Source: an uncultured Alphaproteobacteria bacterium (lineage in GTDB: Bacteria; Pseudomonadota; Alphaproteobacteria; HIMB59; GCA-002718135). Taken from it: 64,000 nucleotides of DNA. Within the stretch, counting starts at the first letter, position 1. Each line of letters begins with the position of its first letter. The notes below the pieces were generated by a model. The model was not told where the DNA came from. It worked only from the letters and a program-made list of their open reading frames with translations, and did not search any database. The stretch lies in NCBI GenBank assembly GCA_902595855.1, contig CACJRY010000003.1, positions 57,098 through 121,097 on the forward strand. Direction: 5' to 3'. The position numbers were made by a program, and so were the translations under genes. Shown here one piece after another: positions 25,202 through 42,355 of this stretch.

Positions 25202-26304
25202 AGATTACTGATATAGAAATACGCGCATGTCGTCATAGGGATCCTGTAATGAAAGACTCAGAGATGCGTGATGGAAAAAAATCAGATTTAGAATTTTTAG
25301 TAGTAACTTTTCACACAAATGAAGGTTTAAGCACATCTACTTTTGGTTTTGCAGGAAGAGGAGCATCGATGGCAGGAGAAATAGCTAATAGTATTTTCAA
25401 ACCATTTTTTATTGGTAGAGATCCTTTATATAGGGAAAAGCATTGGCATGAATACCGAATGGCAGATCGATGGTGGAATCATGCTCCGATATATAGTTAT
25501 GGACCTTTTGATATTAATTGTTGGGTTTTATCATCTCTACAAGCAAGTCAGCCGTTATATAAATATTTAGGCGCGTATAGAGATCAAGTTCCAATTTATG
25601 GAAGTTCTCTTGTTTATAAAACACCAGAGCAATATGCAAAAGAGGCGAAAGAATATCAAAATAAAGGTTTTAATGCTTATAAAATTCATCCTCCTGGAAC
25701 ATACGATTTAGATTTAGAAATTCATAAAGCTGTAAGATCAGCTGTGGGTAATGATTTTAAATTAATGAGTGACCCTGTAGCTCCATATACTTTTGAGCAA
25801 GCTTTGCGTTTAGGAAGAGAATTAGAAAAATTAAATTATTACTGGTATGAAGAACCATTATTTGATGAAAACTTTCATAACCTTAGAGAATTAACAAGAA
25901 TATTAGATATCCCAATTATTGGTACTGAAGTAATTGCAAAACATCCCTACAGTGTTGCAGAATGTATTTCGACTAGAGTAGTTGATATGGTTAGAGCAGA
26001 TGTATCTTGGAGTGGTGGTATCACCGCAACAATGAAAACTGCTCACTTAGCTGAAAGTTTTGGTGTTCAGTGTGAAATTCATACAGCAATTTATCATCCT
26101 CTAGAATTGGTAAATTTACATTGTTGTGCTGCAATAAAAAATTCAGAATTTTTTGAGGTTCTTGTTCCTTACGATTATTTCGATTTTGGGTTAAAGGAAA
26201 AAATAAAAGTTGAAAATGGTTCTGCACAATTGCCTTCTAAACCCGGTCTTGGTATTGAATTAGATTGGGATTTTATTGATAACACTACTTTCAAAAAATT
26301 TTAA
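25198..26304 (+). CDS. enolase-superfamily protein, specificity unknown (atypical K-x-H)
   Basis: 368 aa with blocks YKIHPPG (K-I-H where FucD has K-V-K), LMSDP, WYEEP, GTE, DMVRAD and CEIHT. It overlaps the CoA-transferase gene by 4 nt. Confidence 0.75.
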   Translation: MKITDIEIRACRHRDPVMKDSEMRDGKKSDLEFLVVTFHTNEGLSTSTFGFAGRGASMAGEIANSIFKPFFIGRDPLYREKHWHEYRMADRWWNHAPIYSYGPFDINCWVLSSLQASQPLYKYLGAYRDQVPIYGSSLVYKTPEQYAKEAKEYQNKGFNAYKIHPPGTYDLDLEIHKAVRSAVGNDFKLMSDPVAPYTFEQALRLGRELEKLNYYWYEEPLFDENFHNLRELTRILDIPIIGTEVIAKHPYSVAECISTRVVDMVRADVSWSGGITATMKTAHLAESFGVQCEIHTAIYHPLELVNLHCCAAIKNSEFFEVLVPYDYFDFGLKEKIKVENGSAQLPSKPGLGIELDWDFIDNTTFKKF

Positions 26305-26306
26305 CA

Positions 26307-27608: not shown

Positions 27609-28342
27609 GACTAACAAATAAAAATATTATAGTAACTGCTGCAGCTCAAGGTATTGGCAGGGCTACTGCAATAGCTTTTGCAAATGAAGGTGCAAATGTC
27701 ATTGCAACAGATATAAATGAAGATAAGCTTAAAGAAATTTCAAAAGAAAATAAAAATATTCAAATGCAAAAACTTGATGCAACTAGCAAAACTGAGGTTG
27801 AGGATTTTTGCTCGAATATAAATGAAATTGACATATTATTTCATGCTGTGGGCTTTGTTCACCATGGTAATATAATGGATTGTGATACTGAGGAATTTTA
27901 TAGATCAGTAAATGTAAATATTTACTCTGCTTATTTAATGACTCATAATTTATTACCCAAGATGCTGAAAAATAAAAAAGGAAACATCATTATAGTCTCT
28001 TCTGCGGCATCAAGCGTAAAAGGTGTACCAAATAGATTTATCTATGGAACAACAAAAGCGGCACTCAATGGGTTTGTAAAAGCTCTAGCCGCAGATTATG
28101 TTGGTCAGGGGATAAGATGTAACGCTATTTTGCCTGGTACAGTTGAAACACCTTCTTGGGAAGGGAGAGTGCAAATGGCTGATGATCCAAAAAAAGCTAG
28201 AGAAGATTTTATAGCAAGACAGGCAATGGGCCGTCTTGCTCAACCAAGTGAGATTGCATCAATGGCACTTTATTTAGCAAGTGATGAATCTGATTTTGTG
28301 ACTGGAACACTTAATTTAATTGATGGAGGATGGACTTTATAA
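27605..28342 (+). CDS. short-chain dehydrogenase, 2-keto-3-deoxy-L-fuconate/rhamnonate 4-dehydrogenase-like
   Basis: 245 aa classical SDR with TAAAQGIGRA and YGTTKAAL (YxxxK). Its position directly after fucD matches the published fuconate operon logic. Confidence 0.7.
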   Translation: MRLTNKNIIVTAAAQGIGRATAIAFANEGANVIATDINEDKLKEISKENKNIQMQKLDATSKTEVEDFCSNINEIDILFHAVGFVHHGNIMDCDTEEFYRSVNVNIYSAYLMTHNLLPKMLKNKKGNIIIVSSAASSVKGVPNRFIYGTTKAALNGFVKALAADYVGQGIRCNAILPGTVETPSWEGRVQMADDPKKAREDFIARQAMGRLAQPSEIASMALYLASDESDFVTGTLNLIDGGWTL

Positions 28343-29190
28343 TGAAAACACTAAGATATAGAATTGGTAATGAGGTTAAGCCAGGAATTTTAGATTCTGA
28401 TGAAAACATACTTGATGCTTCCAGTTTGGTTTCTGATTGGGATAATGAAAATGTAACAACAGATAAGTTGAATGAATTAAAAAATAGTGATTTGAGTTCT
28501 CTCCCAAAAGTAGATAAAATTGATAGTATAGCTCCTTGTGTATGTAAAAAAAGTGTTGGAAAATTTATTTGCATAGGTCTAAATTATTCTGATCATGCAG
28601 AGGAAACTGGAATGGAAGTTCCTCCTGAGCCAATTATTTTTTTTAAAGCTACGAGTGCTATTATTGGACCTAACGATAATGTAATCATTCCAAAAAATTC
28701 TAAAAAATCAGATTGGGAAGTTGAGTTAGGAATTGTAATTGGAAAAGAAGCTAAATATATTTCTGAAGACCAATCACAAGATCATATAGCAGGTTATTGT
28801 GTTGTGAATGATTTAAGTGAGAGAGCTTTTCAATTAGAACATTCTGGACAATGGGTAAAAGGAAAATCTTGTGATACTTTCGGACCTATAGGTCCATATT
28901 TAGTAACTAAAGATGAAGTTTCTGATCCTCAAAATTTATCAATGTGGTTAGAAGTTAATGGAAAAAGGATGCAGGATGGTTCAACCAAAACAATGGTTTA
29001 TGGTGTTAATTTTTTAGTTAGTTATTTAAGTCATTTTATGTCTTTACAGCCTGGTGATATTATTTCGACAGGAACACCACCAGGAGTTGGTATGGGTTTA
29101 AAACCACAGACATTTTTAAAACCTGGTGATGAAATGAAGCTTGGCATTGAAGGATTGGGTACTCAAACTCAAAAAACAATATCTGCATAA
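28342..29190 (+). CDS. fumarylacetoacetate-hydrolase-family protein, 2,4-diketo-3-deoxy-L-fuconate/rhamnonate hydrolase-like
   Basis: FAH-family blocks GLNYSDHAEE, DWEVELGIVIGK and GDIISTGTPPGVG. The ATG at 28342 overlaps the SDR stop (TAATG); the track start at 28330 adds 4 aa. Confidence 0.7.
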   Translation: MKTLRYRIGNEVKPGILDSDENILDASSLVSDWDNENVTTDKLNELKNSDLSSLPKVDKIDSIAPCVCKKSVGKFICIGLNYSDHAEETGMEVPPEPIIFFKATSAIIGPNDNVIIPKNSKKSDWEVELGIVIGKEAKYISEDQSQDHIAGYCVVNDLSERAFQLEHSGQWVKGKSCDTFGPIGPYLVTKDEVSDPQNLSMWLEVNGKRMQDGSTKTMVYGVNFLVSYLSHFMSLQPGDIISTGTPPGVGMGLKPQTFLKPGDEMKLGIEGLGTQTQKTISA

Positions 29191-30344
29191 TGTTTGGTGG
29201 AATAGAAAATTGTCATAACGTTAAAGATTTTAGAAAATTAGCTAAAAAAAAATTACCAAGTCCCATTTTTCATTACATTGATGGCGCGGCTGATGATGAG
29301 ATTACTTATAAAAGAAATACAGATTCTTTTGACTCATGCGATTTAGTTCCTAATGTTTTATCTGGAGTAGATAAAATTGACATGTCTACAACAGTTATGG
29401 GACAAAAAATTGATATACCTTTGTATTGTGCTCCAACTGCTCTTCAGCGATTATTTCATTATGAGGGTGAAATCGGTGTTGCTAAAGCGGCTGAAAAATA
29501 TGGCACCATGTTTGGCATTTCCTCTTTAGGTACAGCGAGTATTGAAGAAATATCAAATTTAGTATCAACACCAAAATTATTTCAATTATATGTTCATAAG
29601 GATGAGGGTCTAAACAAAGATCTAATTGATAGATGTAAAAACTCAAATTTTGAAGCTATGGCAGTAACAGTAGATACAGCTGTTGGAGGTAATAGAGAAA
29701 GAGATCTTAAAACAGGTTTTACAATACCAATGAAACTTTCTTTAAGTAGTGCTATTAGTTTTGCCACACACCCATCATGGGCCTTTAATTATTTTACAAA
29801 ACCTAAATGGGAATTAAGCAATTTAAAAAATCATATTGCAGCAGGAACAAGTGTAATGACAAGCATAGGTGATTATTTTACTCAGATGTTAAATAATTCT
29901 CTTGATTGGAAAGGAGTTGAAAAAATTAATAAAGAATGGGGCAAACAATTTGCTATTAAAGGAATTATGTCTGTAGAGGATGCAAAAAAAGCAGTTGATG
30001 TTGGAGCAACTGCAGTAATGGTTTCAAATCATGGAGGAAGGCAACTTGATGGATCAAGATCACCATTCGACCAACTTGCCGAAATAGTTGATGCTGTTGG
30101 TGATAAAATTGATGTTATTTGTGAGGGAGGAATTCGAAGAGGTACACACGTTTTAAAAGCTTTATCACTTGGAGCGAAAGCCTGTTCAGGAGGGAGAATG
30201 TATCTTTATGCATTGGCTGCCGGAGGACAAAAGGGAGTTGAAAAAACTTTATTTAATCTTAAAAATGAAATTGAAAGAGATATGAAATTAATGGGCGTTT
30301 CTTCAATTGATCAATTAACGCGAAAAAATTTAAAGTTTAGATAA
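29190..30344 (+). CDS. lldD: FMN-dependent alpha-hydroxy-acid dehydrogenase, L-lactate dehydrogenase-like
   Basis: 384 aa with the family block VSNHGGRQLDG. TAATG overlap with the hydrolase gene. L-lactate is the expected product of the upstream hydrolase. Confidence 0.7.
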   Translation: MFGGIENCHNVKDFRKLAKKKLPSPIFHYIDGAADDEITYKRNTDSFDSCDLVPNVLSGVDKIDMSTTVMGQKIDIPLYCAPTALQRLFHYEGEIGVAKAAEKYGTMFGISSLGTASIEEISNLVSTPKLFQLYVHKDEGLNKDLIDRCKNSNFEAMAVTVDTAVGGNRERDLKTGFTIPMKLSLSSAISFATHPSWAFNYFTKPKWELSNLKNHIAAGTSVMTSIGDYFTQMLNNSLDWKGVEKINKEWGKQFAIKGIMSVEDAKKAVDVGATAVMVSNHGGRQLDGSRSPFDQLAEIVDAVGDKIDVICEGGIRRGTHVLKALSLGAKACSGGRMYLYALAAGGQKGVEKTLFNLKNEIERDMKLMGVSSIDQLTRKNLKFR

Positions 30345-30387
30345 AATAAATATTTATTATTTTTAAAATTTATTCTACAATTTTTTT

Positions 30388-30708
30388 ATGAATTTAGAAA
30401 TAGAGCCAGTACATATTGGTCAGGAAGATGACATTGATGTTGGAAGTGTAGAAAATTTTGAACATGAGGAAATAGATTATGCTATTTTTCGCTTAGAGTC
30501 TGGCTTCTTTGCAACTCAAGGGCACTGCAATTGTGCAGACCAAGCCTTTTTAAGTGAAGCTAATGTTGAGGGGGAAGAGCTTGAGTGCGCTAGTTGTGGA
30601 AATACATTTAGTATAGTATCTGGAGATCCCATAAGTGATCCTGAATTACTAGCATTAAAAATTTTTGATATATATGAAGAGGATGGAGACATTTTTTTAA
30701 ATCTCTAA
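30388..30708 (+). CDS. small Rieske-fold-like protein with four Cys in place of the 2Cys/2His ligands
   Basis: 106 aa. The pattern is C47-N-C49-x17-C67-A-S-C70, spaced like the Rieske motif C-x-H-x15-17-C-x-x-H. Flanking sequence (YAIFRLESGFFATQGHC ... IFDIYEEDGDIFLNL) resembles Rieske-type ferredoxins. Confidence 0.5.
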   Translation: MNLEIEPVHIGQEDDIDVGSVENFEHEEIDYAIFRLESGFFATQGHCNCADQAFLSEANVEGEELECASCGNTFSIVSGDPISDPELLALKIFDIYEEDGDIFLNL

Positions 30709-31673
30709 GTTTTAATTTCTAATCTATTAACAATATTATCTGAATTTAATTTACTATCTTTATTTAAGAAATAAATAGTATTTTCAGCAGCTTCTATTGA
30801 CATCCTTTTTCTGCACTCTAATGTTAAAGCAGCATTGTGTGGTGAGAGTAATACATTAGGTAGTTTAAAAATCGGGTGATCTTTATTTGGTGGCTCTATC
30901 TGAAACACGTCCAAAGCTGCACCTCTTATTTTTTTTTCCTTGAGTGTTCTTTCTAAATATTTTTCATGAATAATTCCACCTCTTGCTGTATTAACAATAA
31001 TAGCTGTATCCTTCATAATTAAAAACTCATCTTCACTAATAAAGTTTTTAGTTTTATTATTTAATGGCAGATGTAAGGAAATATAATCAGCTAATTTTAA
31101 ACCTTCAATTTTATCAGATACTTGATACCCATATTTTTCTATTTCTTCTCTATCAATAAATGGATCAACAACATAAATATTCATATCAAAACCTTCACAT
31201 CTCTTCGCTACTTCTTTGCCGATCCTTCCAAAACCAAATATAACTGCATTTTTTTTAAATAATTCAAAAAAATTAGGCAGAGATGATTTCTCACTAAATC
31301 TACCTTCTCTCGTTAGTTTATCAGATAAATGAATATTTTTAGTTAGATATAAGAAGGAAGTTAAAACATGTTCTGCAACACTTATTGCATTAGATTTAGA
31401 AGTTATTCCAAGTGCAATTTTATTTTTATTTAAATATTCTAAATCGACATTATCATATCCGACTCCATGTCTTGTTATAATTTTTAAATTATTACAGTAT
31501 TCAAGAACTTCAGAATGCAAATTTGCAGTCCGTAGAATTATACCATCAACGTTTATTAATTCTTTTTTAAGATTTTCTTCTTCAAAATCGTTAATTTCAA
31601 AGCAATCAAAATTCTCTTTTTTCAGGATTTGCCATCCATCTTCATGAATTTCTCCCATTATTGCTATTTTCAT
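30705..31673 (-). CDS. D-isomer-specific 2-hydroxyacid dehydrogenase
   Basis: 322 aa with blocks GFGRIGKEVAKR, ARGGIIHEKYL, DVFQIEPP and SPHNAALT. Confidence 0.85.
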   Translation of the reverse strand: MKIAIMGEIHEDGWQILKKENFDCFEINDFEEENLKKELINVDGIILRTANLHSEVLEYCNNLKIITRHGVGYDNVDLEYLNKNKIALGITSKSNAISVAEHVLTSFLYLTKNIHLSDKLTREGRFSEKSSLPNFFELFKKNAVIFGFGRIGKEVAKRCEGFDMNIYVVDPFIDREEIEKYGYQVSDKIEGLKLADYISLHLPLNNKTKNFISEDEFLIMKDTAIIVNTARGGIIHEKYLERTLKEKKIRGAALDVFQIEPPNKDHPIFKLPNVLLSPHNAALTLECRKRMSIEAAENTIYFLNKDSKLNSDNIVNRLEIKT

Positions 31674-31794
31674 TGTTTTTTTATAATATTTTAATTGTTA
31701 AATTGAAATCATTTGTAACAAAAAAAATTAAATAAATAACTATTCTAAAAATTATTTTTCTTGTAGAAAAGTTATAAACTATATTGAGGAAGAT

Positions 31795-33639
31795 ATGAAA
31801 ACTATAAAATTATCATGTTCGCACGCTTTATTAAAATATTTAATTGCACAAAAAATAATAATTGATGGAAAAAAAGCTCCCTTATTTCCTGGTGCTTTTG
31901 GTATTTATGGGCATGGTAATGTTGCTTGTATTGGTCAAGCAATGGAAGAATTTCAATCTGATTTGCCAGGATATCGTGGGCACCACGAACAAAACATGGC
32001 TTTAACTGGAATTGGTTATTCAAGAGCCATGCGTCGCAAACAAATATTTATTGCTACTTCGTCTGTTGGTCCTGGATCAACAAATATGGTTACTGCTGCT
32101 GCTGTAGCTTTGAGTAATAGATTGCCTCTTCTCTTAATACCAGGTGATACTTTTTCTAGTAGGTTTCCAGATCCTGTTTTGCAACAAGTTGAAAACTTTA
32201 ATTCTCCTACTGAAACACAAAATGATGCATTTAAGTCTGTTTCAAGATATTTTGACCGCATTACAAGACCAGAACAAATTTTATCTTCACTTCCACAAGC
32301 TATTCAAGTTATGTTAGATCCTGCGGATTGTGGGCCTGCAACAATTTCAATGTCCCAAGATGTGCAAGGTGAAGTTTATGATTATCCAGAAGTTTTTTTT
32401 GAAGAAAAAATTCATCAAATAAGAAGAATTTATCCAGATCCTGATCAGTTAAAAGTTGCTGTAGAAAAAATTAAACAATCAACACAGCCAATTATTATAT
32501 CTGGAGGAGGAGTTTTATATTCAGAGGCAGAAAAAGAATTATCTGATTTTGCTAAAAAACATAACATTCCAGTTACATCAACTGTTATGGGAATTGGCTG
32601 TATGACTCATGACAACCCATACTACATTAGTGCGATTGGATGTTTGGGAGAAGGTTCATCGAATAATTTATCTAAAGATACCGATTTAGCTATTGCAATT
32701 GGTACAAAATTAGCGGATTTTACAACAGGTTCGTGGACAAATTTCCAAAATCCAGATTTCAATTTAGTTTCAATTAACACATCAAGATTTGATACAACAA
32801 AACATAGAGCTGCACCCATAGTAAGTGATGCTAAAATTGGCTTACAACAATTATCGGAAGCCCTTGGTGATTGGAAAGCTCCCAATAAATGGTATGAAAT
32901 AGCTATTGAGGAAAGAAAAAAATGGGACTCATATGTTCAAAAAGAAAGCGGTCCTACTAATCAAGAAGTTCCTTCCTATGCTCATGCGGTAGGAGCTGTA
33001 TATCGAAATGCGGATCCTTCAGACATTGTTGTTACTGCTGCAGGTGGTTTAGTTGGTGAGGTTGTTCAAATTTGGAAACCCAAACAATTAAATACTTTTG
33101 AAACAGAATGGGGCTTCAGCTGTATGGGTTATGAAATTTCAGGAGCACTTGGAATTAAAATGGCTAAACCTGATCAAGATGTAGTAGTCTTTGTTGGTGA
33201 TGGATCATATCTTTTACACAACAGTGATATTTATAGTTCTGTTTTATACGATCAAAAATTAATTATTGTAGTTTGTGATAATGGAGGCCACATGGTTATA
33301 AACAGATTACAACTAGCTAAAGGTGGAAAAGAATATATCTGTAATTTGAGAGCTGCGAGAGCAAAAAATTTACAATTTGTTGATTTTGAGTCACACGCAA
33401 AAAGTATGGGCGCTAACTCTGAGAGAGTTAAATCTACATCTGAACTTGAAGCTGCATTTAAAAGAGCAAAAGACTCAGATAAAACATATGTAATTGTTAT
33501 GGAAACTCATGGTTATGAATGGCTAGATGGAACTGCATTTTGGGAGAGCCCAACCTTGATGAATGCGACAAATGAAAACACCAAAAAAGCTCTTGCAGAG
33601 CACACGGAGGGTAAGAGCAAGCAGAGAAAAGGAGTTTAG
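31795..33639 (+). CDS. iolD: IolD-like TPP-dependent 3D-(3,5/4)-trihydroxycyclohexane-1,2-dione hydrolase
   Basis: 614 aa, co-linear by eye with B. subtilis IolD (GHGNV, STSSVGPGSTNMVTAAA, PDPVLQQVE, SRYFDRITRPEQ, ISMSQDVQGE). TPP motif GDGSYLLHNSDIY...CDNGG. RBS GAGGAAG. Confidence 0.85.
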   Translation: MKTIKLSCSHALLKYLIAQKIIIDGKKAPLFPGAFGIYGHGNVACIGQAMEEFQSDLPGYRGHHEQNMALTGIGYSRAMRRKQIFIATSSVGPGSTNMVTAAAVALSNRLPLLLIPGDTFSSRFPDPVLQQVENFNSPTETQNDAFKSVSRYFDRITRPEQILSSLPQAIQVMLDPADCGPATISMSQDVQGEVYDYPEVFFEEKIHQIRRIYPDPDQLKVAVEKIKQSTQPIIISGGGVLYSEAEKELSDFAKKHNIPVTSTVMGIGCMTHDNPYYISAIGCLGEGSSNNLSKDTDLAIAIGTKLADFTTGSWTNFQNPDFNLVSINTSRFDTTKHRAAPIVSDAKIGLQQLSEALGDWKAPNKWYEIAIEERKKWDSYVQKESGPTNQEVPSYAHAVGAVYRNADPSDIVVTAAGGLVGEVVQIWKPKQLNTFETEWGFSCMGYEISGALGIKMAKPDQDVVVFVGDGSYLLHNSDIYSSVLYDQKLIIVVCDNGGHMVINRLQLAKGGKEYICNLRAARAKNLQFVDFESHAKSMGANSERVKSTSELEAAFKRAKDSDKTYVIVMETHGYEWLDGTAFWESPTLMNATNENTKKALAEHTEGKSKQRKGV

Positions 33640-33726
33640 CTCAGAAAGCTTGAAATTGCTTATTTTTCATATTCTAAAAAAAATAACTCGTCTTTACTTT
33701 CTATGATAAAATTTATTATTTTTTAG

Positions 33727-33738
33727 TAAAACGTTTTA
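33727..33738. promoter_or_regulatory. perfect 12-bp palindrome TAAAACGTTTTA upstream of the binding-protein gene (LacI-type operator-like core AACGTT)
   Basis: Read directly from the sequence, about 100 nt upstream of the ATG at 33837 in the longest intergenic spacer of the window. No LacI-family gene is present in the window. Confidence 0.3.
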
Positions 33739-33836
33739 TTAATTAACAACATTTTTCAATTTATACTTGATTTACTTATTGCTCTGAATATTAGTAAATG
33801 GTTAATTATTAATAATTTAACTATTTAGGAGGAAAT

Positions 33837-34742
33837 ATGAAAAAATTTCTACTTTCAATTGTGGCTCTAGTATTCATTACTAGTTCTGCGTACGCTGAGA
33901 GATACGTAATGGTAACTCACGGTGAAGGAAAAGACCCTTTTTGGCCGGTAGTTCAAAAAGGTGGTGAAGATGCAGCTCGTGCAATCGGTGCTGACTTTGA
34001 ATATATATACAACCCTTCTGCTGATATGGCTGATATGGCTAGCTCAATTCAAGCTGCTGCGGCAACTCAACCAGATGGTATGGTAATTTCACTTCCAGAT
34101 CCAGATGCTTTAGGCCCAGCTATTAAAGCTGCTGTTGCAGCTGGTGTTCCAGTAATCACTATGAACTCCGGTTTAGAAAACTCTGCTGCACTTGGTGCCC
34201 TTATGCACGTTGGACAGCCAGAATATCTTGCTGGTCAAAAAGCTGGTGAAAGAGCAAAAGCAGAAGGTGCAACAAAAGCACTTTGTATGATTCAAGAAGC
34301 ATATAATACGGCTCTTGTAGATAGATGTGAAGGTTATGGTGAAGCAGTTCCTATGGAATTCACTGACACTACTTCAGACCCTGCTACTATTCAAACTCGT
34401 GCTACTGCTGCATTACAAGCAAATAGTGATGTTGACGCTATTCTTTCAGTAGGACCTCATGTTTGTGAAGCTGTTGATAAAGCAGTTGCTGATCTTGGTA
34501 TGACAGTTCACCATGCTTGTTTTGATTTAAGTCCTGCAGTTATGGACCTAATCAATGCTGGTAGAGTGTCTTTCACTATTGACCAACAACAAAGATTACA
34601 GGGTTATATGCCAATTATCGTATTACACCTTTATAATAACAGTGCTGGACTTCTTCCAGGAGCTAACATCCCTTCAGGACCAGGCTTCGTTGATAAGTCA
34701 AACGCTTCTTCAGTTGCTGCTCTTGCAGGAATTGATAGATAG
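33837..34742 (+). CDS. periplasmic sugar-binding protein, CUT2 (ribose/fructose-type, Peripla_BP) family
   Basis: 301 aa with signal peptide MKKFLLSIVALVFITSSAYA and a strong RBS AGGAGG. The protein is Ala-rich and the gene is visibly GC-richer, with biased codon use suggesting high expression. Confidence 0.85.
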   Translation: MKKFLLSIVALVFITSSAYAERYVMVTHGEGKDPFWPVVQKGGEDAARAIGADFEYIYNPSADMADMASSIQAAAATQPDGMVISLPDPDALGPAIKAAVAAGVPVITMNSGLENSAALGALMHVGQPEYLAGQKAGERAKAEGATKALCMIQEAYNTALVDRCEGYGEAVPMEFTDTTSDPATIQTRATAALQANSDVDAILSVGPHVCEAVDKAVADLGMTVHHACFDLSPAVMDLINAGRVSFTIDQQQRLQGYMPIIVLHLYNNSAGLLPGANIPSGPGFVDKSNASSVAALAGIDR

Positions 34743-34755
34743 TTTATTAGTTTAA

Positions 34756-34781
34756 GGGCCGATTAATCGGCCCTTTTTTTT
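34756..34781 (+). terminator. intrinsic terminator/attenuator between the binding-protein and permease genes
   Basis: GGGCCGA-TTAA-TCGGCCC stem-loop followed by eight T. It starts 14 nt after the SBP stop and ends 8 nt before the permease ATG. Confidence 0.8.
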
Positions 34782-34789
34782 ATTTATAA

Positions 34790-36385
34790 ATGAATACATC
34801 AACTTCAAATCAACCTAGACAAGAGTCGGATCGACAAGGTCAAAAAAAATGGTATTCCGCTATTACATCACGTCCAGAAATTGGCCCGTTTGGAGTAATG
34901 CTTTTACTTTTCTTTATGTTAGGATACTTCTCTATTCCAGAGGGGCAATTTTCTCTCAACCCATTTGCTGGAGAAGGTTTTAATGCTCTAGGTATAAGAA
35001 ATAATTTTAGAGTTATTGCACAGCTTGGTATAGTTGCTCTTGGAGCTGGGATGCTGATCATTGCTGGTGAATTCGATTTATCAGTTGGGTCTATGATAGG
35101 TTTTGCTGGTGGATGTATGGCGATGATACTCAAATGGGGATTTGCAGTAGTTATTCCTTATATCTCTTTTGACGGCGGTTTTCATTTTGAAGGTTTAAAA
35201 ATATTTGAAATTACAAATGTCTCCCCTTTAACAGCTTTACTAATTACATTGTGTTTTACACTAGCATTTGGTTGGTTTCAGGGATGGCTTATCGTAAAAA
35301 GTGGAATAGCATCTTTTATTGTTACACTAGGTGGATTGTTTTTTTTAAGAGGGGTCACAGAAGTTTCTTACAGAGCATTTAATCGTGCTCCTGATCAAAC
35401 AGCAGGTTCTACAACAGTAACAGAACTTCCAGATATAAAAAATATCATTAATGTTCCAGGACATGGAGAAATGGAAAGAGATGCAGCTAAGATGTTGCCA
35501 AATGATCAGCTATTAGAAATATTGAGTAATGTTCCAGCCAATACTGTTGCCAAGTTAACGGAACAACTCACTTATATAAATGAAAAAGTTGCAGCTAGTA
35601 AGACTGCTCTAGCTTCTAAAAAAATGATTGATACACTAGAAAACTCTCTTGCTGGTGCAAAAAAATCAGGAAATGACTCCATGGTAGAAATTTTGACAAA
35701 AAAAATTGAAGCTGGTGTTGAAGTTCCTGCAGTTGCTGCAAAAGCAGTGACTGATATAGATATAGCAAAAGCTTACATTGATACAATTTATACTGCTAGA
35801 CCTGTAGCAAATTTTTTTGGTGGCGATATTATGGAGCCTGTTTTTGATTGGTTGTACTTTACAGCAGATTGGAATGTAAATAATTATGGAAATATTTTTG
35901 CAAAAGGAATGTATTCATGTTTAATGATATGGTTGCTTTTAGCATTAGTTTGTTATTTTGTATTAAGTAGAACACAAGCTGGTAACTGGATTTATTCAAC
36001 AGGAGGAAATCTTAGTGCAGCTCAAGCCAATGGTGTTCCAACAAACAAAGTTAAAATTTCCTTATTTATGTTTACAGCATTCTGTGCAACCATGTTCGCT
36101 GCTTGTCAAGTATTTGAAGTTAACACAGCTGATACAGCTAAAGGTAATTTAAAGGAATTAGAGGCAATTGCTGCGGCTGTTATTGGTGGCGTTGTACTTA
36201 CTGGAGGTTTTGGAACAATACTAGGGATCATCCTAGGGACAATTATTTTTGGTATAGCAAAAGAAGCCTTCTTTTATATTCCTGGCATTGATGGATCTTT
36301 CTACAGAGTATTCCTTGGCGCAGTACTTGTTGCCGCTGCCCTAACAAATGAGAATATTAGGAAAAGAATAATAGGTAGCATTTAA
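34790..36385 (+). CDS. CUT2-type ABC sugar permease (RbsC/FrcC-like) with a large inserted hydrophilic loop
   Basis: 531 aa. Typical family blocks: AGEFDLSVGS, GGNLSAAQANGVPTNKVK, LEAIAAAVIGGVVLTGGFGT. Residues about 198-373 between hydrophobic segments 5 and 6 are hydrophilic. Confidence 0.85.
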   Translation: MNTSTSNQPRQESDRQGQKKWYSAITSRPEIGPFGVMLLLFFMLGYFSIPEGQFSLNPFAGEGFNALGIRNNFRVIAQLGIVALGAGMLIIAGEFDLSVGSMIGFAGGCMAMILKWGFAVVIPYISFDGGFHFEGLKIFEITNVSPLTALLITLCFTLAFGWFQGWLIVKSGIASFIVTLGGLFFLRGVTEVSYRAFNRAPDQTAGSTTVTELPDIKNIINVPGHGEMERDAAKMLPNDQLLEILSNVPANTVAKLTEQLTYINEKVAASKTALASKKMIDTLENSLAGAKKSGNDSMVEILTKKIEAGVEVPAVAAKAVTDIDIAKAYIDTIYTARPVANFFGGDIMEPVFDWLYFTADWNVNNYGNIFAKGMYSCLMIWLLLALVCYFVLSRTQAGNWIYSTGGNLSAAQANGVPTNKVKISLFMFTAFCATMFAACQVFEVNTADTAKGNLKELEAIAAAVIGGVVLTGGFGTILGIILGTIIFGIAKEAFFYIPGIDGSFYRVFLGAVLVAAALTNENIRKRIIGSI

Positions 36386-37164
36386 TGGAAAGAAAACCAC
36401 TAATAGAAATAAAAGATTTAGTTAAAAAATTTGGATCTTTTACGGCTTTAAATGGTGTTTCTTTAGATGTTTATCCAGGTGAGGTTCATGCACTCTTAGG
36501 AGATAATGGTGCAGGTAAATCAACCTTAATTAAGGTGCTTTCAGGAGTTCACCCAATGACAAGCGGAGAAATTAAAGTTGATGGAGATACAGTCAATTTT
36601 ACTTCTCCTAGACAAGCTTCTGATGCAGGTATTGGAACTGTTTATCAAGACTTGGCATTGAATGCTTTAACATCTGTTACTAGAAATTTTTTTCTTGGTC
36701 GAGAGATTAAAAAAGGACCAGGCCCATTTGGTTTAATGCAAATGGACGAGATGGATAAAATAACTTCCGAAGAAATGTCAAAAATTGGAATAAATATATC
36801 TGACCTAAATCAACCAGTGGGAACGATGTCTGGTGGTCAAAGGCAAACTTTGGCAATTGCAAGAGCAATTTATTTTGGTGCTAAAATATTAATATTAGAT
36901 GAACCTACATCCGCGTTAGGTCAAAAGCAGCAAATGGAAGTTTTAAAAACTATAAAAAAAGTTCAACGTCTTGGAAATATTGCAATCATATTAATCACAC
37001 ACAATGAAATTCATGCACGCCTAATAGCTGATCGATATACTTTTTTAAGTTTAGGTGAAGTAATTGGTTCAGGATTGTCCTCTGAACTTGGCGGTGAAGA
37101 TGTTAAGAGATTGATGGCTGGTGGTGCAGAAATTGGCGATCTTGCTAAAGAATTAGAATTATAG
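36385..37164 (+). CDS. ABC transporter ATP-binding protein, single-NBD CUT2 type (FrcA-like)
   Basis: 259 aa with Walker A GDNGAGKST, signature MSGGQRQ and Walker B ILILDEPTSAL. It overlaps the permease gene by 1 nt. Confidence 0.88.
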   Translation: MERKPLIEIKDLVKKFGSFTALNGVSLDVYPGEVHALLGDNGAGKSTLIKVLSGVHPMTSGEIKVDGDTVNFTSPRQASDAGIGTVYQDLALNALTSVTRNFFLGREIKKGPGPFGLMQMDEMDKITSEEMSKIGINISDLNQPVGTMSGGQRQTLAIARAIYFGAKILILDEPTSALGQKQQMEVLKTIKKVQRLGNIAIILITHNEIHARLIADRYTFLSLGEVIGSGLSSELGGEDVKRLMAGGAEIGDLAKELEL

Positions 37165-37198
37165 TTTTTTTTTATTTTTTTTCATTTAAAATTTATCA

Positions 37199-38047
37199 AT
37201 GCAGAAATTCTTGAAAAATAGTTTTAATATTAATGAAGCGTTAAATGAATTAATGCACGAGTCTGGAGTTATAGTTATTGAAAATGTCTATAACTTAAAT
37301 GATATCAAAGAAGCAAGAGAGATTGTTAATCATTTTGCAGATACGCAAGAACAAAAAGAGTCTCACTTTAATGCGGAGGCTGAAGCATCTGGTAAAATTA
37401 AGCTTCAACAAAGGGTTTGGAATTTATTTGGCAAGGGAGAAGTTTTTAGTAAATTAATTTCAGATGATATTGTTTTTAGTTTAATGTCTAAACTTTTAGG
37501 ATCAGAATTTTTTTGTGGATCTTACTGCGCAAGTAGATTACTACCAGGTTCTCCAGGACAGGAACTTCATCTAGATTATCCATATTGGGATTTTTATAAT
37601 ACCGAGACTTTTCCTATGGGTCTTAATAGTTCATTTGCTCAAAATTGTCAGGCAACAATACCTCTGGATGTTTGTTCAGAAGAATCAGGAGCAACAGCTT
37701 ACATACCAAGATCTCAAAAAAAATTACACTATCCAAATGAAAATGATGATTTTTCAAATAGACAACAAATGATTGCAAATCCTGGAGATTTAGTTTTTTT
37801 TAATGGCAACTGCTGGCATGGAGCCTCACCTAATAAATCAAATCACCAAAGAGCAGCATTATTGATTGAGTTCCTTCCTAAATACATAAAACCAGTTGAA
37901 GATTTAGTCACATATTTATCTGACGAGTTTAAAAATAATTCAAATCCAAAAGTGCGACAACTTTTAGGATTAAATTATGAATATCCAAAAATTATGGATG
38001 TTAGTAAAAAAACAAATAATATTGGTTTAGGTTACAAAGCTAAATAA
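37199..38047 (+). CDS. phytanoyl-CoA dioxygenase (PhyH)-family Fe(II)/2-oxoglutarate oxygenase-like protein
   Basis: 282 aa with facial-triad pattern ELHLDYPYW (H-x-D) and CWHGASPN (distal His), plus a following Arg (NHQRAAL). Confidence 0.7.
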   Translation: MQKFLKNSFNINEALNELMHESGVIVIENVYNLNDIKEAREIVNHFADTQEQKESHFNAEAEASGKIKLQQRVWNLFGKGEVFSKLISDDIVFSLMSKLLGSEFFCGSYCASRLLPGSPGQELHLDYPYWDFYNTETFPMGLNSSFAQNCQATIPLDVCSEESGATAYIPRSQKKLHYPNENDDFSNRQQMIANPGDLVFFNGNCWHGASPNKSNHQRAALLIEFLPKYIKPVEDLVTYLSDEFKNNSNPKVRQLLGLNYEYPKIMDVSKKTNNIGLGYKAK

Positions 38048-38102
38048 AATCTATATTTTTAAGTTAAATTCACTATAAATATTTTAAAATAATAGAATCA
38101 GA

Positions 38103-39248
38103 ATGAAAAACATTGGATTAATAGGATGTGGAAATATTGCTGAAACATATTTTCGATCACAGGATTATTTTAATAATATAAATTTTGTAGCATGCGCTGA
38201 TAAATTTCATGAAGCTGCAATTAAATGCGCTGAACAAAATAAAATTACAGCATTATCAGTTGATGAAATTCTAAAAGATAAGGATATTGATATAATTCTT
38301 AATCTAACAATACCACAAGCACATTTTGAAGTTTCAAAACTAGCCTTAGAGTCTGGCAAGCATGTGTATAGTGAAAAACCAATGTCAATTACATATGATG
38401 ATGCAAAATATCTTCTAGAATTAGCAAGCAAAAATAATCTTTATTTTGGAAATGCTCCAGACACTTTCCTAGGTGGAGGAGGTCAATTATCAAGAGAATT
38501 GGTTGACAAAGATGAGATTGGTAAAATTTTAACAGGAAATTTTATTTTTGCTTTCCCTGGAGTTCATGAATTTCACCCTAATCCAGAATCGTGGTTTCAA
38601 GTTGGTGGTGGTCCTGTAATTGATATGGGACCATATTTTTTCACAACTCTTGTTAATTTGTTAGGACCTGCAAAAAATGTAAGAGCGAGAGGAAAATTGT
38701 TTTCTAATCAACGTGAGTATTTAGTTGGACCTAAAAAAGGTAAATTTTTTGATGTTGAAATACCAACATCCGTTATGTTCGATGTAGAATTTGTGAATGA
38801 AGCTATAGTCCAAGGCTTTATATCATTTGATGTCCAAAATCATGCAAGAAATCATATGGAGTTGTATGGAACTAAAGGATCTTTAGTTGTTCCTGACCCA
38901 AATATGTTTGGAGGACCTGTTCAACTTTCACATGAGCTTGGATCTGAATGGAAAGACCTTTCGGTTGAAAAAAAATACTTAGGTAAAACTAATATTATAA
39001 ATCATAGTGGCCGTAGCAATGAAGCGCCTAGGCAATCAAACTATAGAGGTTTTGGATTAGCTGAAATGATTTACTCAATTGAAAATAATCGTAAGCATCG
39101 CTGTAATGATCAGTTAGCTTTACACGTGTTAGATTTAATAGAGTCTACAATTCTTGCTGCTGAGTCAAAAAAAGAAATTCAGCTAAGATCATCATGTGAA
39201 CAACCAAAGCCCATTACTGAAGAGGAGATAAAAATATTACTAAAATGA
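38103..39248 (+). CDS. Gfo/Idh/MocA-family NAD(P) oxidoreductase
   Basis: 381 aa with N-terminal IGLIGCGNIAETYF Rossmann motif and the EKP block (YSEKPMS). Confidence 0.8.
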   Translation: MKNIGLIGCGNIAETYFRSQDYFNNINFVACADKFHEAAIKCAEQNKITALSVDEILKDKDIDIILNLTIPQAHFEVSKLALESGKHVYSEKPMSITYDDAKYLLELASKNNLYFGNAPDTFLGGGGQLSRELVDKDEIGKILTGNFIFAFPGVHEFHPNPESWFQVGGGPVIDMGPYFFTTLVNLLGPAKNVRARGKLFSNQREYLVGPKKGKFFDVEIPTSVMFDVEFVNEAIVQGFISFDVQNHARNHMELYGTKGSLVVPDPNMFGGPVQLSHELGSEWKDLSVEKKYLGKTNIINHSGRSNEAPRQSNYRGFGLAEMIYSIENNRKHRCNDQLALHVLDLIESTILAAESKKEIQLRSSCEQPKPITEEEIKILLK

Positions 39249-40480
39249 TTGATGTTGAAAAAATTGAAAAAAAAATAATAAAAGAAAAAAAATTTTTGAG
39301 GGATAAATCTCAAAATTATAATAATAATTTTTTAAATATTCAAAAATATATCGAAAAAGAAATTATAAATATTGAAGAATTAAAAAAAAATAATTTGAAT
39401 ATTATTCCTGAAATAAATTTGAATGATTTAGAATCTAATTCAGAAAAATTTATTGCTGAAGTAAAAAACAGAGGTTGTGTCGTTATTAGAGATGTATTTG
39501 AAGACAGTATGATGAAAAAAATGAATACTGAACTTGAGACTTATATTGAAGAAAATAATTATTATGAAGATCAAAAGAAGAAAGCAAATATTGATAATTA
39601 CTTTAGTGATCTTAAGTCAGGTAAACCTCAGATATTTGGCTTGTATTGGTCAAAAACACAAGTAAACATTCGACAAGCATTAGAATTAGAAAAAGTAAAA
39701 AAATGGCTGAATCATCTATGGCAGTATAAAGATAATAATAATGATTTAATTTTTGATCCAAATAATGAGCTTGTATATGCAGATAGAGTAAGAAGAAGAG
39801 AGCCAGGTGACTCAACACTTGGGTTATCACCTCATTGTGATGCTGGTTCTGTGGAGCGCTGGATAGATAGAGGCTATCAGTCTGTTTATGAAAAAATATT
39901 TTCTGATGATTTTGAAAATTATGATCCATTTAATGCTACTTTTAGAAATACCACTCAAATGATAGAATCTCCCGCAGTTAGCCATGTATTTAGAACTTTT
40001 CAGGGTTGGGTTGCTCTTACTGAACAAGGTCCTGGGGATGGAACATTGCAATTAATACCTATTGCGAAGTCTATGGCTTACATCTTAACTAGAGCTTTGA
40101 TGGATGATGTTGATGAGTCAAATTTATGTGGTTCTAAACCTGCTCGTGCATTATCAATTAATAGTAAATACCATGCTTTATTGTTAAGAGGACTTGTCTC
40201 TATTCCAAAAATGAAACCAGGGGACACTGTCTGGTGGCACCCTGATATAGTTCATGCAGTAGAAGATATGCATTCCGGACAAGGATATTCAAATGTAGTT
40301 TATGTAGGGTCAACACCCTATTGCAAAAAAAACTTGGAGTATTCAAAAAAACAAGCTCAAAAATTTTTGGAAGGTAAAAGTCCACCTGATTTTGCTCCCG
40401 AGGATTATGAAGTGAGTTATAAAAATAGAGCTACGTTAGATGATCTTACTCCTCTTGGAAAAAAACAACTCGCTTTGTAA
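39245..40480 (+). CDS. DUF1479 (YbiU-like) protein, putative Fe(II)/2OG oxygenase fold
   Basis: 411 aa, similar in size to E. coli YbiU as I recall it. Blocks LSPHCDAGSVERW (H-x-D) and WWHPDIVHAVE. It overlaps the oxidoreductase stop by 4 nt. Confidence 0.6.
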   Translation: MIDVEKIEKKIIKEKKFLRDKSQNYNNNFLNIQKYIEKEIINIEELKKNNLNIIPEINLNDLESNSEKFIAEVKNRGCVVIRDVFEDSMMKKMNTELETYIEENNYYEDQKKKANIDNYFSDLKSGKPQIFGLYWSKTQVNIRQALELEKVKKWLNHLWQYKDNNNDLIFDPNNELVYADRVRRREPGDSTLGLSPHCDAGSVERWIDRGYQSVYEKIFSDDFENYDPFNATFRNTTQMIESPAVSHVFRTFQGWVALTEQGPGDGTLQLIPIAKSMAYILTRALMDDVDESNLCGSKPARALSINSKYHALLLRGLVSIPKMKPGDTVWWHPDIVHAVEDMHSGQGYSNVVYVGSTPYCKKNLEYSKKQAQKFLEGKSPPDFAPEDYEVSYKNRATLDDLTPLGKKQLAL

Positions 40481-40503
40481 TTTATTTTTATTCATAATAA
40501 ATT

Positions 40504-40929
40504 TTACCAAGACCCATTATTTTCCATTGAAGCCCAGGGCTCTTTTATTGGAAGAGCTTCACCCTCTTGAAGTATTTCAATAGAGATATTATCTGGAGAT
40601 TTTATAAATGCCATGCGCCCATCTCTAGGCGGTCTATTAATAGTAATGCCATTTTTAATTAAACGTTCGCATGTTTCATAAATATTATTCACACTATAGG
40701 CTAAGTGTCCAAAATTTCTTCCACCAGTATATTCTTCAGGATCCCAATTATATGTTAATTCAAGTAAACCAGTTTTTTCATCACTATTTTCAGCTCCAAG
40801 AAAAATAAGCGTAAATCTTCCTTTTTCACTTTCCTTACGTCTTACTTCTTTAAGACCCAATTTATTACAATAAAAATCAATAGACTCCTCAATATTTTTT
40901 ACTCTTACCATAGTATGCAAATATTTCAT
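40504..40929 (-). CDS. gloA: lactoylglutathione lyase (glyoxalase I)
   Basis: Core sequence [26 protein letters not shown] ... ELTYNWD ... FGHLAY ... IEILQ is typical of GloA. Start set at the internal ATG at 40929; the track start at 40983 adds 18 Lys-rich residues. Confidence 0.85.
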
Positions 40930-41041
40930 TTTTACCTCAATTTTTAATTTCTTATCCGAAATTTTTTTACGTAATTCTACCATATATTTTAAAATATAGT
41001 ATGTTTTAAAATTGTTTATACGAATATATCTGGAGGAATAA

Positions 41042-42355
41042 ATGAGTGACTATTTTAAGAATATTAATGAAATAATTTATGAAGGACCTGATAGTGACAA
41101 TCCTTTAAGCTTCAAATATTATGATGAAAGCAAAAAAGTGCTTGGAAAAACGATGAAAGAACATCTTCGTTTTGCAACATGTTATTGGCACACATTTACT
41201 TGGCCTGGGTTAGATCCGTTTGGAGGTGCAACATTTGAAAGACCATGGATGTCTGGAGAAGAACCTCTTAAAATGGCAGAAATGAAACTTGATGAAGCTT
41301 TTGATTTCTTTGCAAAAATAAAAACTCCTTTCTTTTGTTTTCATGACAGAGACATTTCTCCTGAAGGAACATCGTATAAAGAAACTCAAAAGAATTTTCT
41401 TCATATTATTGATTTGATGGAATCAAAAATGGAGTCTTCTAATGTTAAGCTGTTGTGGGGAACAGCAAATGCCTTTTCTCACAAACGATACATGAGTGGT
41501 GCATCAACAAATCCTGATCCTGAAGTATTTGCATATAAAGCTGCTCAAGTGAAAGATTGTATGGATGCAACTAAAAGATTAGGTGGTGCTAATTATGTTC
41601 TTTGGGGAGGTAGGGAAGGATATGAAACAATTCTTAATACAAATATGAAATTAGAGATCAATAACTTAAAACGATTTCTCGAACTTGTTGTAGATTACAA
41701 GCATAAGATTGGTTTTGACGGTCAAATCTTACTTGAGCCTAAACCGCATGAACCGACTAAACATCAATATGATTTTGATGCAGCTGCATGTTTAGCTTTT
41801 CTTAGAAATGCAGGCTTAGAGAATGAAATAAAATTAAATATTGAAGCTAATCACGCAACATTATCAGGACATAGCTTTGAGCATGAAATTGCTTATGCAA
41901 TTGCTAACAATGCACTTGGAAGTCTAGATATTAATAGAGGAGATACCTTGTTAGGGTGGGATACTGATCAATTTCCAAATAGTGTTGGTGAGTTAATTCT
42001 TCCTTTTTATCATATTTTTTCAAATGGAGGCATTGGAAATGGAGGGTTAAACTTTGATGCGAAAATTCGAAGACAATCAATAGAGCCTGAAGATTTATTT
42101 TATGCCCATATTGGTGGTATGGATATATGTGCTAGAACACTTTTAGCAGTTGAAAAAATGATCAACGATAAAAAAATCTCTAATTATGTTGCACAAAGAT
42201 ATGAGGATTGGCAAAAAGATCTTGGGCAATTTATCCATGATAAAAGTACTTCTCTTGATGCGATTCATCAAAAAGTCCTTGATGGTAATATTGAGCCTGA
42301 GCCAAGATCTGGAAATCAAGAGTATTTAGAAAATATTTTAAATAAGTACTTATAG
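41042..42355 (+). CDS. xylA: xylose isomerase
   Basis: 437 aa class II XylA with blocks [22 protein letters not shown] and [17 protein letters not shown]. Confidence 0.92.

Follow-up and report, generated by a model that had tools for sequence, protein, structure and literature searches.

The window analyzed here, a stretch of 64,000 nucleotides from an uncultured alphaproteobacterium, carries at positions 31795-40480 a series of seven same-strand (+) open reading frames (ORFs), in which an ABC importer is followed by two predicted Fe(II)/2-oxoglutarate (2OG) oxygenases and an oxidoreductase. Genes and families were called by Pfam and NCBIfam profile searches of the window ORFs, and scores in bits were compared with the cutoffs of the models. 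The series opens with an IolD-type thiamine pyrophosphate (TPP) enzyme (31795-33639). An AT-rich intergenic gap of 197 nt follows (33640-33836; 19% GC), the 3' end of which is an AGGAGG ribosome-binding site, and then come a periplasmic substrate-binding protein (SBP; 33837-34742; Peripla_BP_4, 126 bits), a CUT2 permease of 531 aa (34790-36385; BPD_transp_2, 114 bits in two stretches), an ABC ATPase of 259 aa with a single nucleotide-binding domain (NBD) (36385-37164; ABC_tran, 116 bits, one domain), a PhyH-family Fe(II)/2OG oxygenase (37199-38047; PF05721, 76 bits, cutoff 22), a Gfo/Idh/MocA oxidoreductase (Gfo; 38103-39248; PF01408 (GFO_IDH_MocA) and PF22725 (C3 domain)) and a DUF1479/Gig2-like Fe(II)/2OG oxygenase (39245-40480; PF07350, 409.5 bits). 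An earlier note, made from the letters alone, had described the same layout, with its 197-nt gap and a 4-nt overlap of the last two genes, and the coordinates and the junction sequence agree with it; its family assignments of the seven proteins are likewise upheld by the profiles.

The genes from the SBP to DUF1479, which we call the cassette, are separated by short spacers or overlap, by 1 nt between permease and ATPase (TAATG across stop and start) and by 4 nt between Gfo and DUF1479 (ATGA common to stop and start; junction sequence AAAATGATT); DUF1479 is translationally coupled to Gfo in the window. A scan of 30300-41200 found no terminator inside the enzyme part of the cassette and no terminator-like site on the + strand after IolD. 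Its strongest terminator-like site is a GC-rich hairpin followed by a T-run, on the + strand between the SBP and permease genes (34754-34775), with a 9-bp stem that contains 6 GC pairs and is followed by TTTTTTATTT. This hairpin is possibly an attenuator or an mRNA stabilizer, and its position would fit an expression level of the SBP above that of the membrane components. The 197-nt gap is likely the cassette's own promoter region; promoter-like matches in the gap were not commoner than in shuffled sequence, and the promoter scan was uninformative.

Close relatives of the module come from Pelagibacteraceae single-cell genomes and marine metagenomes, and the window, with about 31% GC, is therefore taken to be SAR11-type DNA. 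In the window and also in the related contigs L001, L002, L004, L031, L051, L053 and L119-124, the genes stand in the order SBP-permease-ATPase-PhyH-Gfo, with protein identities of 70-99%, and because this order recurs at such identities in many independent genomes and contigs, the cassette is more than a chance order of genes. The constant unit consists of the SBP, permease, ATPase, PhyH and Gfo. The window, L001, L002, L004, L031, L053 and L119-122 also have DUF1479, but L051, L123 and L124 lack it, and in these three Gfo lies directly 5' of a glyoxalase gene. The compact same-strand module of transporter, PhyH, Gfo and DUF1479 that the earlier note recognized is thus conserved in relatives, but the oxygenase-reductase-oxygenase trio that it proposed does not hold as a unit, since DUF1479 is missing from three otherwise intact modules. 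DUF1479 is an optional 3' add-on, and the trio is a constant PhyH-Gfo pair with interchangeable 3' oxygenase genes.

The variation at this 3' end goes beyond DUF1479. An FA_desaturase-family gene and a PanB-like gene lie 3' of DUF1479 in L001, L002 and L004, and L002 also has a short-chain dehydrogenase/reductase (SDR) gene between PhyH and Gfo. L004, the module proteins of which are 98-99% identical to those of the window, differs from the window by a clean 1.83-kb indel (L004 5417-7247; blastn of the window against L004 breaks at window 40486-40492), and the window lacks the FA_desaturase-like and PanB-like genes; gene content therefore varies within a single population. A sister cassette of the L003 type has the Gfo orthologue and DUF1479 in common with the window, but its PhyH and its two transporters are different ones, and it carries two FA_desaturase genes.

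IolD stands apart from this unit. It matches the equivalog model TIGR04377 over residues 5-612 with 766.8 bits (cutoff 715), compared with 822 and 833 bits for operon-embedded IolDs. We surveyed 80 metagenome contigs with an IolD of 81-95% identity, using the window proteins as references to map the genes on them. The divergent D-isomer 2-hydroxyacid dehydrogenase that lies upstream of IolD in the window (30705-31673, − strand; 2-Hacid_dh_C, 177 bits) is the upstream neighbor in 70 of the 74 contigs with a visible upstream gene. The downstream neighbor, visible in 59 contigs, is a second 2-hydroxyacid dehydrogenase followed by a different CUT2 cassette in 19, an SDR in 14 (this arrangement runs on into a GH42 beta-galactosidase cassette in several contigs), a window-type SBP in 12, the glyoxalase gene in 1 and something else in 13. 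Because the partner is constant upstream but the downstream neighbor varies, IolD is not counted as a member of the module. IolD and the 2-hydroxyacid dehydrogenase are a separate, constant two-gene unit that forms the left border of a mosaic island, and the adjacency of IolD to the cassette is one arrangement among several.

The cassette, for its part, is independent of IolD in gene order. L031 (single-cell genome AG-916-I19) carries the genes from the SBP through DUF1479, followed by the glyoxalase gene and a xylose isomerase gene (xylA), without IolD upstream; in IolD's place (L031 226-4428) are a split transketolase, an FGGY kinase and a divergent TIM-barrel isomerase, which presumably resemble transketolase-type pathways for D-apiose or ketoses. 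In L053 and L119-122, a further CUT2 cassette, of four genes, intervenes between IolD and the module. The earlier note had placed IolD in the module and had named, as part of what would refute it, the finding that IolD is not co-conserved with the downstream genes, which is what the survey of the 80 contigs shows.

These arrangements also bear on the idea that all seven genes serve one pathway, in which the oxygenase-reductase-oxygenase series would turn an imported substituted cyclitol into a cyclohexane-1,2-dione, with IolD opening the ring and IolE being bypassed. We consider this rather unlikely. IolD does lie immediately 5' of the transporter in the window, L001, L002, L124 and 12 metagenome contigs, but those 12 are a minority of the 59, and unrelated cassettes, including the one with the GH42 galactosidase, also follow IolD, while the module occurs without IolD (L031) or behind another cassette (L053, L119-122). 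IolD and the cassette are set apart by the AT-rich gap of 197 nt, in which the cassette has a ribosome-binding site of its own, and DUF1479 is dispensable in L051, L123 and L124. The chemistry alone is attractive, because a deoxy-inositol oxidized twice would give the dione of IolD without IolE, and in the window and the fetched SAR11-type contigs (apart from an AP_endonuc_2 candidate in L109) there is no IolE, so that the substrate of IolD needs another source; the transporter, moreover, is of the inositol clade. However, no IolB or IolC was found in the window and related contigs to account for the fate of 5-deoxyglucuronate.

The assignment of the transporter comes from several comparisons. 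The best NCBIfam match of the SBP is the model for the SBP of rhizopine catabolism, NF052284 (238 bits), whereas the RbsB model gives only 34 bits. Peripla_BP_4, BPD_transp_2 and ABC ATPase domains are encoded together in one operon, as in a CUT2 importer of the Int/Moc clade, and by these profile matches the transporter belongs to the inositol/rhizopine (Int/Moc) clade. A canonical iol operon on plasmid p190534 of Paracoccus aestuarii has, flanked by iolG and a Gfo gene, the genes for an SBP with 43% identity, a single permease and an ATPase of 258 aa with one NBD; iolC, iolD, iolE and iolB come next. The Paracoccus SBP, permease and ATPase match the window proteins with 231, 169 and 259 bits. 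The earlier note had called the importer minimal, but since the Paracoccus operon has the same layout, one permease and a single-NBD ATPase are normal for the inositol-operon clade. The two loci are also alike in having a Gfo/Idh/MocA gene 3' of the ATPase and an IolD-family gene nearby. Unlike the Paracoccus operon, the window has no IolG orthologue, IolE, IolB or IolC, its IolD is outside the conserved unit, it encodes two Fe(II)/2OG oxygenases, and its permease carries an insertion of 117 aa. This insertion (residues 219-335; window 35444-35794) is hydrophilic, rich in Ala and Lys and situated between hydrophobic blocks; it is found in every SAR11-type copy (all 531 aa), but not in the homologues from Paracoccus (367 aa) or Sinorhizobium meliloti (378 aa). 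The best PDB match of the SBP is 4ru1 (167 bits), which we take to be a myo-inositol complex. MocB, the rhizopine SBP, is reported to work with membrane components of the inositol transporter (PMC10107442).

In another explanation, the transporter would take up an ordinary sugar such as fructose or ribose, and the adjacent genes for oxygenases and oxidoreductase would be unrelated passengers at a hot spot of recombination. In its gene content the island is indeed highly mosaic, and the SBP is much more conserved than the enzymes. Among the best 120 database homologues, those of the SBP are all at least 91% identical, whereas the lists for PhyH and DUF1479 reach down to 75% and 78%, respectively; some clusters of SBP homologues hold hundreds to thousands of members. 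Between the window and L001 or L002, the SBP is 98-99% identical and the enzymes are 80-87% identical. From these identities, the SBP appears to be either under much stronger constraint than the enzymes or recently recombined. A study of coastal SAR11 described genera with enlarged sugar and fucose metabolism and reported a 'fructose transport system (frcABC)' under strong purifying selection, in addition to fucose catabolism (PMC12636525), which would also suit an ordinary importer. The public annotation of the SAR11 SBP, however, is 'simple sugar transport system', not frcB, and the nearest NCBIfam models are those of rhizopine and inositol SBPs rather than RbsB, a comparison in which FrcB was not directly included. 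Furthermore, PhyH and Gfo follow the transporter in every copy seen, at 70-99% identity and with differing flanks, which is unexpected for passengers. We therefore regard the ordinary importer as a very improbable explanation. An attempt to tie the SBP to the published frcABC was left unconfirmed, as the public names for the SBP are generic, and a ligand screen of SAR11 binding proteins makes no mention of inositol, CUT2, fucose, xylose or other carbohydrate ligands (PMC11485210).

Both oxygenases look functional in that their metal triads are intact, and the four motifs quoted in the earlier note are all present. In PhyH, these are LHLDYPY at residue 123 (H124, D126) and CWHGASPN at residue 205 (H207). 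H124, D126, H207 and R218, the last being the predicted 2OG-binding arginine of this family, are invariant in 23 homologues and align with the H/D/H/R residues of a 24%-identical PhyH from Pantoea. The best PDB relatives of PhyH are fungal meroterpenoid oxygenases (E of about 1e-9). An AlphaFold2 model built on the 23-sequence alignment had a mean predicted local distance difference test score (pLDDT) of 57.9 and was too poor for a fold search. An analogy with the sulfoquinovose dioxygenase SqoD was considered and rejected, because SqoD belongs to the TauD family (PF02668), occurs with a TRAP transporter and is unrelated.

In DUF1479, the motifs are SPHCDAG at residue 195 (H197, D199) and DIVHAVE at residue 334 (H337), and the three residues are invariant in 29 sequences that are 45-98% identical to the window protein. 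The PF07350 match spans positions 2-407 of the 408-position model, and PDB matches include 4rgk, 7twc and 7twe (384 bits), YbiU (2csg, 2dbi) and Gig2 (6akz). With this full-length match and the invariant H-x-D...H triad, the window protein resembles the DUF1479/YbiU/Gig2 family as a whole; it differs in that the SAR11 copy lies in a transporter operon and is coupled to Gfo, a context for which our literature search found no report. The same search found no biochemical function described for DUF1479, YbiU, Gig2 or the PDB entries 7twc, 7twe and 4rgk, and an exact-sequence lookup of the window protein returned no record. The DUF1479 genes of Denitrobaculum, Dongiaceae, Granulosicoccus and Marinomonas have a LacI regulator and a CUT1 sugar ABC transporter as neighbors, and in some cases a Gfo gene as well. 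In Neurospora, the cellulase regulators CLR-1 and CLR-2 act directly on the DUF1479 gene (PMC4620465), and Candida GIG2 is listed among the metabolic genes for N-acetylglucosamine (PMC7832408). DUF1479 is consistently linked to carbohydrates in those other genomes. A SAR11 paralogue with 65-67% identity (single-cell genomes L005-L009) has as neighbors MsrB, a LysE exporter, a histone-deacetylase-family protein, a DAO oxidase and a LIV-type (Peripla_BP_6) ABC transporter; this setting among amino-acid-type genes indicates that in SAR11 the family is not confined to sugar contexts.

The oxidoreductase between the two oxygenases has the glycine-rich motif GCGNIA of the N-terminal Rossmann domain at residue 8, the motifs ACAD at residue 30, EKP at residue 91 and DMGPY (D-x-x-x-Y) at residue 174, and an Asp at the end of beta-strand 2. 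In the Gfo/Idh/MocA family, EKP and D-x-x-x-Y supply catalytic residues and such an Asp is a sign of NAD. Gfo is thus probably NAD dependent and may work in the dehydrogenase direction. It scores 48.7 bits on the IolG model TIGR04380, for which the cutoff is 355, compared with 401.5 bits for a true SAR11-type IolG (L075), and by these scores Gfo is not an IolG orthologue.

The interpretation that we prefer, and toward which we lean with modest confidence, is that the genes at 33837-40480 form a self-contained cassette for the uptake and oxidative tailoring of a cyclitol-like polyol or a substituted sugar, situated in a variable carbohydrate island of SAR11. A cyclitol or polyol would be the best-supported guess for the substrate because the transporter falls in the Int/Moc clade and has a 43%-identical homologue of the same architecture in the Paracoccus iol operon, and the suggestion of a cyclitol or substituted sugar in the earlier note is reasonable on the same grounds. 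In the proposed scheme, the compound would be imported with high affinity, and one or both oxygenases would hydroxylate a C-H bond; at a substituted carbon, the substituent (e.g., O-methyl or amino) would be lost, and at a CH2 group a hydroxyl would be gained. Gfo would then interconvert alcohol and ketone with NAD, and the product would be an ordinary intermediate that is passed to downstream pathways. IolD may accept a cyclic dione from this or from sister cassettes, but the cassette would not depend on it. A literature search found no described pathway of such composition, as the earlier note had supposed. As a putative catabolic operon for a sugar or cyclitol that depends on a binding protein, the cassette is set apart by its soluble Fe(II)/2OG oxygenases, which stand in place of the dehydratase or ferredoxin-dependent oxygenase of the iol and moc loci.

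Several points weigh against this interpretation. The order and the direction of the enzymatic steps are pure conjecture, and no regulator is present in the cassette. The 238 bits of the SBP on NF052284 are below the cutoff of 420 and below the 335 bits of the SBP from the Paracoccus iol operon. The closest SBP outside SAR11 (61% identity) is encoded on a plasmid of S. meliloti MABNR56 (L117 6929-17811) in a different cluster, with a DUF1537-type kinase, a cyclase-like protein, a Gfo, an SDR, two DeoR regulators and a DeoC/LacD aldolase. Given this context, which is of a non-iol polyol or acid-sugar type, the ligand may be a small polyol or sugar rather than a cyclitol. In addition, a considerable minority of the contigs have IolD immediately 5' of the cassette, and in most of the rest only a few genes lie between them, so that there may be a functional link between the two. 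The PLSDB gene table lists no genes for the L117 stretch.

One specific version of the preferred interpretation would follow KanJ and KanK of kanamycin biosynthesis: PhyH would turn an amino sugar or an aminocyclitol resembling scyllo-inosamine into a ketone and ammonia, and Gfo would reduce the ketone. Both systems couple a 2OG oxygenase of the PhyH family with an oxidoreductase that uses a nicotinamide cofactor, for a carbohydrate-like ring, and one oxygenase of this family plus one oxidoreductase is the constant pair of the cassette. KanJ is among the PDB matches of PhyH, but marginally so (E = 0.03-0.04 and about 16.5 bits for the KanJ chains; 16.6 bits at E ~0.03), which places the two in the same superfamily only, and the fungal meroterpenoid oxygenases are better matches. 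The rhizopine (inosamine) SBP model is the best model for the SBP, yet a true inositol SBP outscores the window SBP on it. KanJ and KanK are biosynthetic, whereas the cassette is catabolic and linked to a transporter, and the Asp in beta-strand 2 of Gfo suggests NAD and the dehydrogenase direction rather than an NADPH-dependent reductase. Deamination of this kind is accordingly very unlikely in our view.

The moc locus (mocCABRDEF) of S. meliloti L5-30 resembles the cassette in its Moc/Int-clade SBP, its Gfo/Idh/MocA oxidoreductase and its oxygenase components, and its substrate is a substituted cyclitol (PMC6668481, PMC10107442). The likeness extends to a membrane di-iron hydroxylase that close relatives of the window add, and to a MocE-like gene nearby. 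This gene (30388-30708, + strand) encodes a small Rieske-fold protein of 106 aa (Pfam Rieske, 22.7 bits, cutoff 20.3), the best NCBIfam match of which is the MocE family. Unlike in the moc locus, both proteins fall below the cutoffs of the corresponding models, the SBP for MocB (238 versus 420) and the Rieske-fold protein for MocE (38 versus 136 bits). By Pfam searches of the module and flanking ORFs, there is no MocC-like TIM-barrel protein or MocR in or next to the module; no MocF or other reductase was seen, and the window has no FA_desaturase. The oxygenases of the window, PhyH and DUF1479, are soluble 2OG enzymes, whereas moc has a ferredoxin-dependent system. Galbraith and coworkers are said to have shown in 1998 that the moc locus relies on the inositol pathway of the host. 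MosDEF was considered as a precedent for the oxidation of a cyclitol by a di-iron oxygenase and was discarded, as it has been described as an FAD-dependent dehydrogenase complex.

A second specific version of the preferred interpretation draws on this likeness and supposes O- or C-demethylation of methylated cyclitols or sugars, in which a methyl group would be hydroxylated and lost as formaldehyde, and in which further methyl positions would, in relatives, fall to the di-iron hydroxylases of FA_desaturase type, the Rieske-fold protein and the PanB-like hydroxymethyltransferase paralogue. Sister cassettes and close relatives do add one to three FA_desaturase-family genes and the PanB-like paralogue, but the window lacks both kinds of gene. 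SAR11 oxidizes one-carbon (C1) units, which counts in favor of this version. Bahar and coworkers reportedly proposed in 1998 that mocDEF encode an oxygenase, a ferredoxin and a reductase that demethylate 3-O-methyl-scyllo-inosamine. The rhizopine locus does include mocDEF (PMC10107442), and the MocE-like Rieske-fold gene lies near the cassette; however, its product has Cys at all ligand positions (C47-x-C49...C67-x-x-C70), including those at which His ligands are normal in Rieske proteins, is far below the MocE cutoff and is accompanied by no ferredoxin reductase that we could see. Nothing links PhyH or DUF1479 specifically to demethylation, and we consider this version quite improbable.

The absence of iolE, iolB and iolC from the window, which the earlier note had observed, was confirmed with phmmer: IolB, IolC and IolE from Paracoccus and IolE from Klebsiella had no match (E < 1e-4) among the window ORFs of at least 70 aa, a search in which IolJ and IolA were not included. 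With IolG references from Paracoccus and Klebsiella, the sole match in the window was the Gfo of the module, which is weak (35 bits to Paracoccus IolG). In the 80 related contigs, IolE, IolB and IolC were not found within 10 kb of IolD, apart from the AP_endonuc_2 candidate in L109, which matches no NCBIfam model at E <= 1e-10. Among the fetched SAR11-type contigs, IolG orthologues adjoin IolD only in L075 and L109, and the searched portions of the supplementary tables of a SAR11 pangenome had no iol gene entries.

The IolD of the window is closer to those of variant clusters on plasmids, with 694 bits to Klebsiella IolD and 668 bits to Shinella IolD, than to the IolD of the canonical Paracoccus operon (502 bits). 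The variant clusters, on plasmids of Shinella (L113), Klebsiella (L114) and Pantoea (L115 and L116), combine IolD with IolG, a 2-hydroxyacid dehydrogenase, an HpcH-type aldolase and an aldehyde dehydrogenase resembling succinate-semialdehyde dehydrogenase (SSADH); IolE and an SDR are also present in Klebsiella and Pantoea, and Pantoea has a PhyH-family gene (380 aa) at the edge of the cluster. iolB, iolC and iolJ were not seen in any of these clusters, on which we know of no publication. They share with the window the pairing of IolD with a 2-hydroxyacid dehydrogenase, the window enzyme being 38% identical over its full length to that of the Klebsiella cluster. In contrast, the IolG, IolE, HpcH-type aldolase, aldehyde dehydrogenase and RpiR regulator of the plasmid clusters are not found beside the SAR11 pair, and the SBPs of the plasmid clusters are RbsB-like and not of the Moc/Int clade. 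That the pair of IolD and 2-hydroxyacid dehydrogenase persists without iolE, iolB or iolC nearby, and that a related pairing occurs on enterobacterial and rhizobial plasmids, suggests that it starts an undescribed lower branch of cyclitol or inositol catabolism. A literature search on the fates of 5-deoxyglucuronate returned only a variant with a DUF2090 aldolase and none that matches a cluster of a hydroxyacid dehydrogenase and HpcH. At window 1-1354 (− strand), there is a partial aldehyde dehydrogenase with 231-251 bits to the SSADH-like enzymes of the variant clusters; it is 30 kb from IolD, and no link is claimed.

A bolder proposal can be built on this pair. The PhyH-Gfo cassette, with or without DUF1479, and the IolD/2-hydroxyacid dehydrogenase pair would together constitute an IolE-independent SAR11 route for deoxy- or substituted cyclitols from algae, such as quercitols, cyclohexanetetrols and O- or C-methyl-inositols. 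The 2OG oxygenases would install or unmask hydroxyls, Gfo would oxidize the ring toward the 1,2-dione, and IolD would open it; a non-phosphorylative lower pathway from the 2-hydroxyacid dehydrogenase onward would replace IolB, IolC and IolJ. We think this distinctly unlikely, but if it were true, it would provide the first biochemical function for DUF1479/YbiU and a new class of dissolved organic carbon for SAR11.

The substrate of the cassette matters, since no heterotroph of the surface ocean is more abundant than SAR11 and the range of compounds that it uses shapes carbon cycling in the sea, and the cassette is common in marine metagenomes, where thousands of near-identical SBP sequences occur. 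For DUF1479/YbiU, a family with several crystal structures but not known to have an assigned reaction, the operon gives a tractable route to a first function by way of an SBP that can be screened for ligands and of the partner enzymes.

The surroundings of the cassette are rich in genes for carbohydrate use. Upstream lies a carbohydrate island with CUT1 transporters, several enolase-superfamily dehydratases and a rhamnose mutarotase. At 25198-30344, two enolase-superfamily genes, an SDR, an FAH-family hydrolase and an FMN-dependent dehydrogenase stand in a row, a run that resembles a non-phosphorylative route for L-fucose or a 6-deoxy-sugar acid ending in pyruvate and lactate and that is conserved upstream of IolD in most related contigs. 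The Rieske-fold gene usually travels with the FMN-dependent dehydrogenase, and its usual place is upstream of the 2-hydroxyacid dehydrogenase/IolD pair.

The PanB-like paralogue that is found in relatives (L001 12266-13096, − strand; L075 11144-11971; L109 187-1017) scores 92-113 bits, under the PanB cutoffs of 207 and 272, and is probably not the housekeeping PanB. It recurs beside FA_desaturase-like hydroxylase genes in several cassette variants, and one may speculate that it handles a hydroxymethyl group or a C1 unit.

On the right, the glyoxalase-family gene (40504-40983, − strand; Glyoxalase, 70.7 bits) lies 3' of the cassette in all variants examined and is the conserved border of the variable region. 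It is followed by xylA (41042-42355, + strand), which encodes a class II xylose isomerase; the AP_endonuc_2 score of 30.5 bits is just below the cutoff of 31.1, XylA2_C is found in relatives, and the gene is absent in L124. Downstream of xylA are the housekeeping genes ribF, ileS, lspA and pgi.

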